A DNA stretch of 48,538 bases from a virus (lineage: Duplodnaviria; Heunggongvirae; Uroviricota; Caudoviricetes). Shown here piece after piece: positions 33,413 through 42,019 of this stretch (positions are counted from its first letter, which is position 1; each line of letters starts with the position of its first letter). The stretch lies in the IMG/VR virus record IMGVR_UViG_2740892445_000002; one strand, 5' to 3'. A program made the position numbers and the translations under genes. The notes under the pieces are model-generated. The model saw only the letters and a program-made list of their open reading frames with translations. It was not told the origin of the DNA and ran no database searches.

Positions 33413-34234
33413 CTATCGCGTTACCCTCTTCAACTGCCACTCTGCCCATGCCTCTGCAATATCAAACCGGACCACCAGCGTGTCATAGAATTGCTTAACT
33501 GTTTTTTCCCATGAAGCGCGTGTTATCTGATTTGTCACCTCACATATGGCATCAAATGCCTCCGTTGAAGGTAATCTTTCATAGCCACGCCCACCACAAC
33601 GCTGACAGTTTCTGAAAACCGGCATACCTCGTTTTTCAGACTCTTCACGATGAATGGCAACACCGCGCCCACGGCAATCTTTACAGGCAGTGGAGACCTC
33701 CCCCTTTCCACCACACTCCGGACAGGCAACTTTTACCACCTCCCTGACTTTTTTCCATTCCTCCCAGTAAGACGGATACACGCCTTTTGTACACTTTGCC
33801 CATACTGGCGGCTTACCATCCGGATACTGAATCTTGTTTGTAAAAATCTCGCTTTCAATAAATTTTTTTCCGTGACAGCATGGGCACTGTTTTTTGCTCG
33901 CCGCGCTCCGGGCATAATCCTCAAACGCATACGAAGCCATAATGCGCATCACTACCGGTTTTATTTCTGCCGGAAGTTTTCTTAACGCTGCCACGCGATC
34001 ACACCGACTGAGAGCGTATTCTGCCAGCAGTTCTGTTGCCCGCTCCCTGTCATTCATACTGATGCCCATTTTCCCAAGGAACGCAGAAAACCCCATCTCA
34101 GCCCGATTCTGTGTCATGCCCTGCGCTGCCATCACATCAGTGATACTCAGCGCATCTTTTGACGTTGAGGCCGATGCATCCGTCAGACCCGGTGATTTTG
34201 GGGAATAGTATTTTGGTAAATCTTCCAGTTTCAT
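33413..34234 (-). CDS. Q: late-gene antitermination protein Q (zinc-finger Q family of lambdoid prophages)
   Basis: 273 aa, four CxxC motifs (CPCCHGKK, CPECGGKG, CKDCRGRG, CQRCGGRG); located directly upstream of pR'/tR'. Confidence 0.8.
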   Translation of the reverse strand: MKLEDLPKYYSPKSPGLTDASASTSKDALSITDVMAAQGMTQNRAEMGFSAFLGKMGISMNDRERATELLAEYALSRCDRVAALRKLPAEIKPVVMRIMASYAFEDYARSAASKKQCPCCHGKKFIESEIFTNKIQYPDGKPPVWAKCTKGVYPSYWEEWKKVREVVKVACPECGGKGEVSTACKDCRGRGVAIHREESEKRGMPVFRNCQRCGGRGYERLPSTEAFDAICEVTNQITRASWEKTVKQFYDTLVVRFDIAEAWAEWQLKRVTR

Positions 34235-34605
34235 TCTTTTGCCTGCCCGCCATGCGTTATTTCGTAAATTTTCACACCAAGCCGTCCGCCTGGAACAGGC
34301 AGACCGCGCACAATATTAATTTCATCAAACTGCTCGTCGTCGATAAGTAGTCCTGCATGCGTCAGCGCATCCAGTAGCGCTTTCAGAATGTTGTCCAGGT
34401 CACGACTGCGCTTATCCGGTGGCTCTGCAATAATTTTTATTGTCAGCCTTCCGGGCAGGCTTAATTTCAACCGCTGCTGGCGAACAATAAGCGCTACTGC
34501 CCGGCGATAGCGCTTTCCCTCCTCAGATATAAAATATGTGCTGCCACGGCGTCGCCAGTAAGTGTTCACCGTCGGCGGGTAAGGTAAAACCAAATCTATG
34601 AGCAT
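34231..34605 (-). CDS. rusA: Holliday junction resolvase RusA
   Basis: 124 aa, ...PPTVNTYWRRRG..., ...RDLDN.LKALLDALT.AG...DD.QF... RusA motifs. Confidence 0.9.
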   Translation of the reverse strand: MLIDLVLPYPPTVNTYWRRRGSTYFISEEGKRYRRAVALIVRQQRLKLSLPGRLTIKIIAEPPDKRSRDLDNILKALLDALTHAGLLIDDEQFDEINIVRGLPVPGGRLGVKIYEITHGGQAKE

Positions 34606-35959: not shown

Positions 35960-36107
35960 AGCAGGTGCCAGTTGTTCAGGCTGGCGTGCGAATTGTAAAC
36001 CAGAATGTCAAGAAAAAACAAAACCCGCAGAAGCGGGTTAAGTGCGGGTGCGTTGAGGATGCCTGACACATCAGAGGTGGCGAGGGATTTCTCCCTCGCC
36101 GGGTCTC

Positions 36108-36263
36108 TTACTTCTCAGATTCGTAAGCTGTGAAGACAGCGACCTCCGTCTGGCCGGTTCGGATTCGTACCTCGCAGAGGTCTTTCCTCGTTACCAGTAC
36201 CGTTACAACGACGGTAATACAGATGACGATCAGGGCGATTAGCATCGCCTTTTGCTGCTTCAT
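36108..36263 (-). CDS. hokD: Hok-family type I toxin (HokD/RelF-like)
   Basis: 51 aa MKQQKAMLIALIVICITVVVTVLVTRKDLCEVRIRTGQTEVAVFTAYESEK, near-identical to my recollection of HokD. Confidence 0.9.
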   Translation of the reverse strand: MKQQKAMLIALIVICITVVVTVLVTRKDLCEVRIRTGQTEVAVFTAYESEK

Positions 36264-36440
36264 AGCCTGCTGCTCCTTGCCTTTCGGCGCGTAAGAGGCT
36301 AATCTAAGTGTGCAAGTCATAGATATGGCCTCAGATTAATGTTAAGCGTCCTGCAAGACGCATAATGTTAACTGGGGCTTTTCTCTGTCTGCCTTACGTC
36401 GGCATGCCCGAGGCAGACAGCCTCAAGCACCCGCAGCAAT
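36264..36440. promoter_or_regulatory. hok mRNA leader / mok start / antisense Sok region
   Basis: Minus-strand leader GGGUGCUUGAGGCUGUCUGCCUC... resembles hok mRNA 5' end; in-frame upstream start MTCTLRL... Confidence 0.45.
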
Positions 36441-36513
36441 TCTACTTAACTCTCGCTTTACCGCAAACCGTTTTACCCGATATGGGAATGCCCATATCGC
36501 AATGAATTCAGTT

Positions 36514-36612
36514 TCACATCCGATCCATCAAAAACACAACCAGGCAGTAAACGCCCACAACAGAAATAACGGCCAGCGCGCCTTCCATTGCCAGTGAAAT
36601 ATCATCCGACAT
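36514..36612 (-). CDS. small hydrophobic peptide (32 aa)
   Basis: MSDDISLAMEGALAVISVVGVYCLVVFLMDRM behind AAGGAGGG Shine-Dalgarno; below track cutoff, found by hand. Confidence 0.35.
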   Translation of the reverse strand: MSDDISLAMEGALAVISVVGVYCLVVFLMDRM

Positions 36613-36647
36613 ATTCCCTCCTTTGGTGTTAATCCCGGCGAACGTTT

Positions 36648-36731
36648 TTACCCCCACCGACAAATAACATATACTAAAAAAGCGATAGCCATAGCAACGC
36701 CTGTAATTGCAAATGCTTCAGGCCAGTTCAT
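36648..36731 (-). CDS. small hydrophobic peptide (27 aa)
   Basis: MNWPEAFAITGVAMAIAFLVYVICRWG; ATG overlaps stop of upstream 189-aa gene (ATGA). Confidence 0.3.
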   Translation of the reverse strand: MNWPEAFAITGVAMAIAFLVYVICRWG

Positions 36732-37297
36732 TGGCGCACTTTCTGCGGCGGTTCAGGTAGAAGCATCCGATTGATTACATCGCATTCAGGGATGCTGATA
36801 TCATCACCAAGCCATCCTTGACCTTCAGACCAGCATTGCACGTAATACCCGTATTCTGTGTTCACTACGCACCACTGCCCGTCATCCGGCATTCGCTCAC
36901 TACAGCTTATCCAACCATCCGGAGTTACCGGATGGTTGGTTGACGTTTCCGAGATTTCCCGAAAATTATTGGTTGACGAACCCTTATGTTCCCGAAAGTT
37001 TCCAGCCTGAAGCATGGCGGCGCGGTGACACCAGATAATCCAGCCAAGCGCCATATCCCATGCCATGTATTCTCTATCGCCATTTTTTGCTCTGCGGCGA
37101 TCTACAGATTCTCCGAAACGCTTCTCCATAAATAATTCATAGGCTGCTCGTTCATCCGATACTGCTGCCAGTGATGCCAGTGCAATCCGTGCCAGCTCTT
37201 CCGCTTCTTCTGCTGGAAGCACAACGTTGCTACCAGGTCCGTATGTTTCGCGCCACTGCTTGATTGTCAGTAGTCGCTCTTTGGTAATAGTGATCAT
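36728..37297 (-). CDS. DUF551-like prophage protein
   Basis: 189 aa; C-terminal Trp/Cys-rich WISCSERMPDDGQWCVVNTEYGYYVQCW... Confidence 0.55.
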   Translation of the reverse strand: MITITKERLLTIKQWRETYGPGSNVVLPAEEAEELARIALASLAAVSDERAAYELFMEKRFGESVDRRRAKNGDREYMAWDMALGWIIWCHRAAMLQAGNFREHKGSSTNNFREISETSTNHPVTPDGWISCSERMPDDGQWCVVNTEYGYYVQCWSEGQGWLGDDISIPECDVINRMLLPEPPQKVRQ

Positions 37298-41286: not shown

Positions 41287-41712
41287 TTAGTGCATCACCA
41301 CGGCATTTCCTGCAGGGCCACCACGGTTCATCTGATTGAAACCGGCAATCGCCACTGCGACAAAATCATCAGCGTCTCTCACCAGTCGTTCCCGCGTCTC
41401 CACCAGCTCCCGAAAATAGGCTGAACTGTGGCTGCGCATTCGGGCCACCAGCAAAGGTGGCATTGCCTTTTCGATCGCTGGTAACAACGCCTGAATTTTT
41501 TCAACAGCATCAGGGGTGTCTTTCTCTACCCAGCGGAAAATTTTCTGGGTATTACGAGCTAGGGCTTCCGGATGGCTGTCGCCGTACAGTTCCGGAAATG
41601 TCATTCCCAGTTCAAAATACGCTTTGGTAATCTTCGCAGTTGGTACTTTCTCGCCATCCGGATGCGCCCAGGCATTCATCGCCATGCGGATGTGCTCATG
41701 GCTGATTTTCAT
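41287..41712 (-). CDS. YdaT-like protein (CII-position regulator of Rac-type switch)
   Basis: 141 aa starting MKISHEHI..., immediately downstream of the Cro-like gene. Confidence 0.55.
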   Translation of the reverse strand: MKISHEHIRMAMNAWAHPDGEKVPTAKITKAYFELGMTFPELYGDSHPEALARNTQKIFRWVEKDTPDAVEKIQALLPAIEKAMPPLLVARMRSHSSAYFRELVETRERLVRDADDFVAVAIAGFNQMNRGGPAGNAVVMH

Positions 41713-42019
41713 GAATCATTTGCCTCTTGATATTTCGGGTATGCTCGTTTTCGTCATTTGGTTGCTTCATCAACATATTCAGCGAATAGCATGACGAGCG
41801 TCGTAAGTATGACCAGTCAACATCAGGACGAAGTTCTTCGCACAGAACACCACCTCTTGTTGCACGTTCAATTGCTGGACATCGCTCAGCAGGCAACTGA
41901 CGTACACCTTTGATCCATTGATTTACGCTTGGAGGTGATACACCTAAAAGCCTAGCCATTGCAGATTGCCCACCGACAACAGCACACGCTCGTTTGAATG
42001 AATAGTTCTCTTTTTTCAT
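41696..42019 (-). CDS. Cro-like HTH regulator (YdaS/DicC-like)
   Basis: 107 aa, HTH ...QSAMARLLGVSPPSVNQWIKG...; divergent from repressor gene across operator repeats. Confidence 0.7.
   Translation of the reverse strand: MKKENYSFKRACAVVGGQSAMARLLGVSPPSVNQWIKGVRQLPAERCPAIERATRGGVLCEELRPDVDWSYLRRSSCYSLNMLMKQPNDENEHTRNIKRQMIHENQP

Follow-up and report, generated by a model that had tools for sequence, protein, structure and literature searches.

Two very short open reading frames lie between a DUF551-domain gene and a hok locus in the window (the whole 48,538-nucleotide stretch of phage DNA analyzed here). An earlier note suggested that their position next to a Hok toxin could point to additional small membrane toxins or modulators. 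The locus raises two questions, namely whether these frames are genes and whether the neighboring hok tells us what they do. Both ORFs are most likely real genes for single-helix membrane peptides. The earlier view of them as small (predicted) membrane-peptide genes therefore holds, but a functional link to hok is not supported.

Layout of the locus

The 27-aa ORF whose ATG overlaps the upstream stop codon was confirmed on the minus strand (ORF1), and so was the 32-aa ORF behind a strong Shine-Dalgarno (SD) sequence (ORF2). Pfam and Rfam matches place both of them between the DUF551 gene and hok. The features of the region are as follows.

37297..36728, minus strand: DUF551-domain gene, 189 aa (ORF list; Pfam PF04448, E = 2.1e-6)
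36737..36744, minus strand: position equivalent to the ORF1 SD (window: AGAAAGTG; most relatives: AGGAGGTG)
36731..36648, minus strand: ORF1, 27 codons (MNWPEAFAITGVAMAIAFLVYVICRWG), ATG at 36731-36729 and TAA at 36650-36648
36613..36647, minus strand: ORF1-ORF2 spacer of 35 nt, including the ORF2 SD (sequence)
36616..36623, minus strand: ORF2 SD, AAGGAGGG, ending 3 nt 5' of the ATG
36612..36514, minus strand: ORF2, 32 codons (MSDDISLAMEGALAVISVVGVYCLVVFLMDRM), ATG at 36612-36610 and TGA at 36516-36514
36478..36499, no strand assigned: perfect 9-bp inverted repeat, CGATATGGG-N4-CCCATATCG (sequence; RNA fold)
36439..36467, minus strand: putative hok promoter, -35 TTTGCG at 36467-36462 and -10 TAGAAT at 36444-36439
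36258..36432, minus strand: hok mRNA leader/sok region (Rfam RF01794 sok, 114.8 bits, gathering score 59)
36108..36320, minus strand: mok (70 aa, from 36320) and hok (51 aa, from 36263) (ORF list)

The TGA stop codon of the DUF551 gene (36730-36728) shares the tetranucleotide ATGA with the start codon of ORF1. The DUF551 annotation is also carried by the counterpart genes in RefSeq relatives, and the mok/hok frame matches Pfam HOK_GEF (E = 3.9e-23) as well as the NCBIfam Hok family. The hydrophobicity reported for both peptides was reproduced. Their GRAVY values are 1.23 (ORF1) and 1.40 (ORF2), and each contains one 19-residue hydrophobic window; the best Kyte-Doolittle windows cover residues 6-24 of ORF1 (mean 2.45) and residues 11-29 of ORF2 (mean 2.58). 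The AF2 model of ORF2 is a single helix formed by residues 2-31 (pLDDT 92).

The translational coupling proposed for the locus has to be divided into two steps. The start/stop overlap supports coupling of ORF1 to the DUF551 gene, and ORF1 would be produced by termination-reinitiation at the ATGA. However, coupling of ORF2 to ORF1 is not supported, because the two are separated by a 35-nt gap and ORF2 possesses its own SD. Translation of ORF2 would start independently from this strong site. The ORF1 SD of the window is weakened, because AGAAAGTG replaces the AGGAGGTG usual in relatives; the same window-specific change also converts the end of the DUF551 protein from ...QEV to ...QKV. The spacer is nearly invariant among close relatives, and that of L069 differs.

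A fold in which the U-rich part of ORF1 sequesters the ORF2 SD, and thereby couples ORF2 to the translation of ORF1, was considered. It was rejected because it is not conserved: the paired probability is about 0.8 (z = -2.2) in the window allele and 0.1-0.4 in the other alleles. One extra G in the run TGGGGGTAA (36648-36660), at the stop codon of ORF1, fuses ORF1 in frame to ORF2. Such 74-aa fusions (P0007 and P0008) were observed in a few assemblies, and they may be either genuine variants or errors in sequencing the homopolymer. An AF2 model of the natural 74-aa fusion (pLDDT 69.5, pTM 0.41), taken as a proxy for a helical hairpin of ORF1 and ORF2, gave no support for an interaction, and this arrangement was discarded.

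Conservation of the two reading frames

The first intact relatives of ORF1 came from low-identity DNA matches and were located behind differing genes, as in Stx2a_WGPS2 (MTWPDAFAIVGVAMSIALIVFAICRWG) and the P1-like Salmonella phage SJ46 (MSWPEAFAIVGVAMAIAAIFIFWG). Two degenerate-pattern scans of IMG/VR gave 245 complete copies. The family signature consists of an N-terminal MxWP[E/D]AF, approximately 19 hydrophobic residues forming a variable helix, and a C-terminal CRWG. Exactly 27 codons are present in 216 of the 245 copies; the remaining ones include relatives of 22-34 codons that share the N-terminal motif and carry another hydrophobic tail. Including a few cut-down or extended variants, the whole family ranges from 13 to 40 codons in IMG/VR. 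Every IMG/VR copy opens an ORF and has an SD, overlap with the upstream stop codon is usual, and the flanking genes are unrelated between contexts. The window ORF1 fits the family in its N-terminal motif, hydrophobic stretch, CRWG end, and overlapping start, and represents the second most common allele (35 copies). The pattern was also run, as a control, against 596 Gb of bacterial genomes (one per species); its 12 matches there all lie inside long unrelated ORFs.

A tblastn search located ORF1 in 92 phage records, including 933W-like Stx phages, VT1-Sakai, ArgO145, the P1-like SJ46, and the lytic Vequintavirinae phage Av-05. None of the records inspected carries a separate CDS feature for ORF1, and a full-text literature search with its motif gave no match. 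In Av-05 (L141, a 121-kb phage), the intact ORF1-family gene is located at 1000-1084 (MTWPEAFTTVGVVMAVAFAVYSVCRWG), and the protein encoded 5' of it has an N-terminus like that of the window DUF551 protein (MSILTKERLLTIKQWRETYG...). These two similarities indicate that early-gene modules are common to temperate and lytic phages. Hexanucleotide repeat expansions were also observed in the transmembrane (TM) helix of some relatives, encoding Ala-Met in P0066, P0067, and P0070 and Ala-Val in P0063; they lengthen the helix by 4-8 residues, and the frame and the CRWG end are kept.

A lone open frame of 27 codons is within chance ((61/64)^27, approximately 0.27). Selection on ORF1 was examined with 54 unique 84-nt sequences encoding 28 proteins, using pairwise pN/pS sums that ignore phylogeny. 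The ratio was 0.31 in frame, and 0.35 when restricted to codons 12-27, a part not covered by the search patterns; the two shifted sense frames gave 0.90 and 1.78. The mirrored antisense frame gave similar values (0.39 for ORF1, and 0.35), as expected with such data, and no plus-strand ORF of at least 20 aa overlaps ORF1 in the window. The counts of variable sites by codon position alone were non-significant for ORF1 (p = 0.12).

Relatives of ORF2 were found only in E. coli prophages and are of shallow diversity, with at least 80% identity and 15 unique sequences; tblastn against the phage collection gave no real match. In the sampled loci, ORF2 is always located just downstream of an ORF1 copy. 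Conservation of the reading frames in related prophages had been named as a check in the earlier note, and the frames are indeed kept: ORF2 is intact in all 98 copies, and ORF1 in 120 of the 122 copies that were gathered via ORF2, a sample unselected for ORF1. ORF2 starts with ATG in 92 copies and with GTG in six, a substitution that preserves the function of the start codon, and AAGGAGGGAAT is invariant as the SD 5' of all 98. Its pN/pS was 0.25 in frame versus 0.71 and 2.16 in the shifted frames (pairwise, ignoring phylogeny), and the variable sites are distributed as 9, 4, and 16 over the three codon positions (p = 0.013). Most relatives are 34 aa long, and the window copy is shortened to 32 aa by a GGA to TGA change at codon 33. 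The RefSeq CDS features for ORF2 are the 34-aa hypothetical proteins WP_001278450.1 and WP_072097460.1.

Ribosome occupancy, the other check named, has been published for a homologue of ORF2, XECs145 of E. coli O157:H7 Sakai (PMC5597208). XECs145 and ORF2 share 91-94% identity over 32 aa, the same SD, and the same placement between DUF551/ORF1 and hok. They are the same gene, the window copy being 2 aa shorter, and the order ORF1, SD, ORF2, palindrome, and hok of the XECs145/WP_001278450.1 family is present in the window. In LB, XECs145 gave a translatome RPKM of 346.1, a transcriptome RPKM of 79.1, an RCV of 4.35, and a coverage of 0.99, and in BHI the RCV was 1.14 (PMC5597208); the reads are possibly shared by near-identical prophage copies, and other RNA-protein complexes can mimic footprints. 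The product was predicted to be an inner-membrane protein with one TM helix, and a function was not assigned (Huecker et al. 2017, PMC5597208). The authors chose the most distant start available and set a minimum ORF length of 30 aa (PMC5597208). This choice of start over-extended the gene model of XECs145, which begins at a rare ATA codon, 20 codons 5' of the proper start. ORF1 was outside the assessment because of the 30-aa minimum.

These data bear on the alternative that one or both ORFs are non-functional and have stayed open through the recent common descent of close prophages. The restriction of ORF2 to closely similar E. coli sequences would fit this alternative, as would the lack of a known family for either ORF and the broken ORF1 alleles of some phages (TAG at codon 3 in POCJ13, 75/02, and L263; a frameshift in L264). 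However, ORF1 peptides from phages whose flanking genes are unrelated still share 59-70% of their amino acids, with an excess of synonymous change. ORF2 shows third-position-biased variation, start-preserving ATG to GTG changes, an invariant SD, and published footprints. We consequently regard a lack of function as highly improbable. Judged from the sequences, diverged relatives of both ORFs have kept frame, length, start, and SD to a degree beyond chance, and the pN/pS values indicate purifying selection.

The same TGG to TAG change at codon 3 is found in the Shigella phages POCJ13 (L003) and 75/02 (L004), at approximately 1230-1315, and in L263. The three elements also have a common upstream segment, GAAGGAGGTACGCCAATGACCTAG, which suggests that recombination may have spread one broken ORF1 allele among them.

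Genomic surroundings and the relation to hok

All of the neighboring genes share the minus strand, and together they make up a single early (rightward) operon. Its order is a YdaS/Cro-like gene (41696-42019), a YdaT-like gene, DUF977, several unknowns, DUF551, ORF1, ORF2, and hok/mok/sok, followed by a weak GIY-YIG-like ORF, DUF968, RusA (34231-34605), and antiterminator Q (33413-34234). Pfam matches were obtained for YdaS/Cro, YdaT, DUF977, DUF551, DUF968, RusA, and Q, and the closest public relative has an identical gene order from replication protein P to Q. This gene order assigns both ORFs to the nin-like region of a Rac/lambdoid-type E. coli prophage. Just 3' of hok (36018-36099, minus strand), there is a sub-threshold match to the Rfam family of the Hfq-binding sRNA IsrK (29.3 bits against a gathering score of 50, E = 3.6e-4), which ends in a terminator-like hairpin (36039-36022).

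On the upstream side, ORF1 could be a membrane partner or anchor of the protein encoded by the preceding gene (here DUF551), with the ATGA coupling ensuring their co-production and the peptide tethering or regulating its partner at the membrane. The start/stop overlap occurs in almost all contexts, including tblastn finds in which ATGA was not forced by the search. In addition, P0059 (143 aa) and P0064 (206 aa) join an Ead/Ea22-like upstream protein in frame to an ORF1-type peptide as a hydrophobic C-terminal tail. However, these fusions may be frameshift or sequencing variants, because one extra base in an A-run suffices to create them, and the genes that precede ORF1 are of unrelated families (DUF551, Ead/Ea22-like, and several unknowns). 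A partnership of this kind is very unlikely.

On the downstream side, the hok module begins after ORF2. The Rfam model starts at 36432 and the similarity to hokW of 933W-type phages at approximately 36474; the hok promoter was inferred from the sequence and these two boundaries. ORF2 ends at 36514, upstream of all hok elements, and the inverted repeat lies between them. The 245 ORF1 copies are followed by ORF2 (97), directly by the hok leader (32), by an MFALIQ... gene before xis/int (36), by other sequences (77), or by a contig end (3). Examples without hok are the unrelated genes downstream of ORF1 in SJ46 and Av-05 and a hairpin in ArgO145. In Min27, a relative of ORF1 abuts the hokW promoter without ORF2, and in three loci hok is replaced while ORF2 and the palindrome are retained. 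These counts and replacements indicate that the hok neighborhood is frequent in close E. coli prophages but does not define the ORFs. The hokW-sokW locus has been shown to be a toxin-antitoxin pair (PMC8621323), and the upstream ORFs are not mentioned in that paper (PMC8621323).

The argument from proximity to Hok is therefore not sustained. The hok module is a separate unit, approximately half of the sampled ORF1 copies have other downstream genes, ORF2 persists in the three loci where hok is replaced, and neither peptide matches Hok/Gef. The best reading is that ORF1 and ORF2 are independent of the hok/mok/sok module and are part of the early (nin-like) operon.

The inverted repeat between the ORF2 stop codon and the putative hok promoter reads CGATATGGG-CATT-CCCATATCG in the window, and its version in relatives is a 22-bp perfect palindrome, CGATATGGGAATTCCCATATCG. 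The hairpin at 36478-36499 is not a canonical terminator, because it has no U-tract; it could be a protein-binding site or a stabilizer of the mRNA 3' end. Its location invites a role in cis, in which the ORFs, or ORF2 with the palindrome, form a leader or insulator of hok against read-through of the early transcript and the peptide sequence is irrelevant. The geometry would suit such a device: ORF2 ends approximately 47 nt before the -35 element, the distance from ORF2 to the hok 5' motif is 75-81 nt in 90 of the 98 copies, and a perfect 9-bp hairpin fills part of the gap. Constraint at the amino-acid level (pN/pS of 0.25 for ORF2) argues against an irrelevant peptide, however. ORF2 and the palindrome persist at loci in which hok has been replaced, in 933W-type phages hok directly follows the ORF1 relative, ORF2 and the palindrome both being absent, and the missing U-tract also argues against an insulator of the terminator type. 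We consider the cis explanation to have hardly any probability. A leader peptide for transcription attenuation was also rejected, because the hairpin is without a U-tract, hok has its own promoter, and ORF2 persists without hok.

Possible roles and known small membrane proteins

ORF1 and ORF2 are probably two separate real genes for single-helix inner-membrane micro-proteins that belong to the early operon and are independent of hok/sok. Their coding status and their hydrophobic, helical character are shown by the data, and their membrane location, topology, and target are predicted. ORF1 belongs to a mobile and widely distributed phage family, and ORF2 is a lineage-restricted addition 3' of ORF1, followed by the 9-bp palindrome. 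Both peptides may be inserted in the membrane with the N-terminus out and the C-terminus in, as suggested by the acidic N-termini, the Arg at the C-terminal end, and the basic C-terminal tails of the longer relatives P0073 and P0075. The inner membrane of the host, or membrane proteins, would be their target, and they would have no part in regulating hok.

Searches for known families gave no functional assignment. Pfam, NCBIfam, PHROGs, PADLOC, and PDB sequences showed nothing significant against the two peptides and their longer relatives. Neither ORF matched Hok/Gef (Pfam PF01848; NCBIfam NF007279) at E <= 1, and the best hit among the PADLOC anti-phage defence profiles was an unrelated Cmr5 model (E = 0.029), which is not meaningful. 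A profile search of 1.84 billion representative proteins returned 35 matches, all of which were members of the ORF1 and ORF2 families or their fusions, with no named relative of either peptide among them. Protein homology searches with padded or extended queries gave only close E. coli relatives and frameshift variants. Both peptides were absent from those supplements of an Enterobacteriaceae microproteome study that were searched.

A peptide of 27-34 aa with one hydrophobic helix and a charged end is typical of type I toxins. ORF1 and ORF2 could accordingly be membrane-damaging toxins comparable to Hok, TisB, DinQ, and ShoB, forming extra toxin loci beside hok and killing or arresting the host upon synthesis. 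Both have the small, hydrophobic, membrane-type character of such toxins, as judged from the hydrophobicity and, for ORF2, the AF2 helix, and their size, single helix, and charged end fit as well. Approximately half of the sampled ORF1 copies are located upstream of a hok locus, either directly or via ORF2, and two weak sigma-70-like matches (36588-36615 and 36647-36675, each with 9/12 consensus positions) lie antisense to the ORFs on the plus strand. However, such promoter-like matches are near chance (4 found versus 1.8 +/- 1.3 expected), and an antisense terminator was not found. No Rfam family matched 36514-36731 at E <= 1, and similarity to Hok/Gef or any other toxin family is lacking. 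The ORFs do not form a stand-alone unit with its own promoter and structured leader: no minus-strand sigma-70 consensus that could serve as an internal promoter for expression in the lysogen was found upstream, and ORF1 starts in the upstream stop codon in nearly every context. Moreover, the RCV of 4.35 for the ORF2 homologue was obtained in healthy, uninduced LB cultures, which fits poorly with a potent toxin, unless the footprints originate from a few spontaneously induced cells. Additional toxin loci at this position are therefore unlikely.

A more far-reaching proposal concerns the family as a whole. The ORF1-family peptides might be unrecognized, widespread phage membrane effectors, and in the lineage of this prophage, ORF1 and ORF2 might work jointly as a two-peptide membrane module that influences the timing of Hok-type killing or lysis. 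Such an effector could be a modulator of the host membrane or of transporters, a superinfection-exclusion or anti-defence factor, or a mildly depolarizing peptide, and its function would be determined by the short conserved motif on the periplasmic side. We consider this proposal quite unlikely.

ORF2 has already been recorded, as a hypothetical protein and as a Ribo-seq hit, while ORF1 is a new, unannotated, predicted small membrane protein of phages. The main outcome is thus a correction of the annotation, in which ORF1 is added, the start of ORF2 is fixed, and the suggested functional link to hok is removed. The ORF1-ORF2 pair is present in 673 of 5426 complete E. coli genomes (approximately 12%), and the genomes with any match contain a median of three such places. 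ORF1 itself occurs in numerous enterobacterial phages, Stx-converting ones and others, among them lytic and plasmid-like phages. Because ORF1 is not annotated as a CDS of its own in the records inspected, it escapes comparative and functional studies. Should these peptides act on the membrane of the host, the physiology of the lysogen or the release of phage could be affected in Shiga-toxin-producing strains.

Compared with Hok, HokW, TisB, DinQ, and ShoB, both peptides are similarly very small, consist of one hydrophobic helix, and are located in prophages, here with a functional hok-type locus as the adjacent module. They differ from Hok/Gef in sequence and from type I toxins in having no Rfam-matched antisense RNA, no promoter of their own, and no long folded leader; ORF1 is further distinguished by being embedded in an operon through its start/stop overlap. 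AcrZ, MgrB, MgtS, KdpF, and CydX are single-pass inner-membrane regulators of E. coli with defined partner proteins. ORF1 and ORF2 have no sequence relationship to these five proteins. They nevertheless share with regulators of the AcrZ/MgrB type, and with phage small proteins (reviewed in PMC11323111), a length of 25-50 aa and one TM helix. Their history is similar as well, as such proteins were overlooked by annotation pipelines and came to light via ribosome profiling or conservation.
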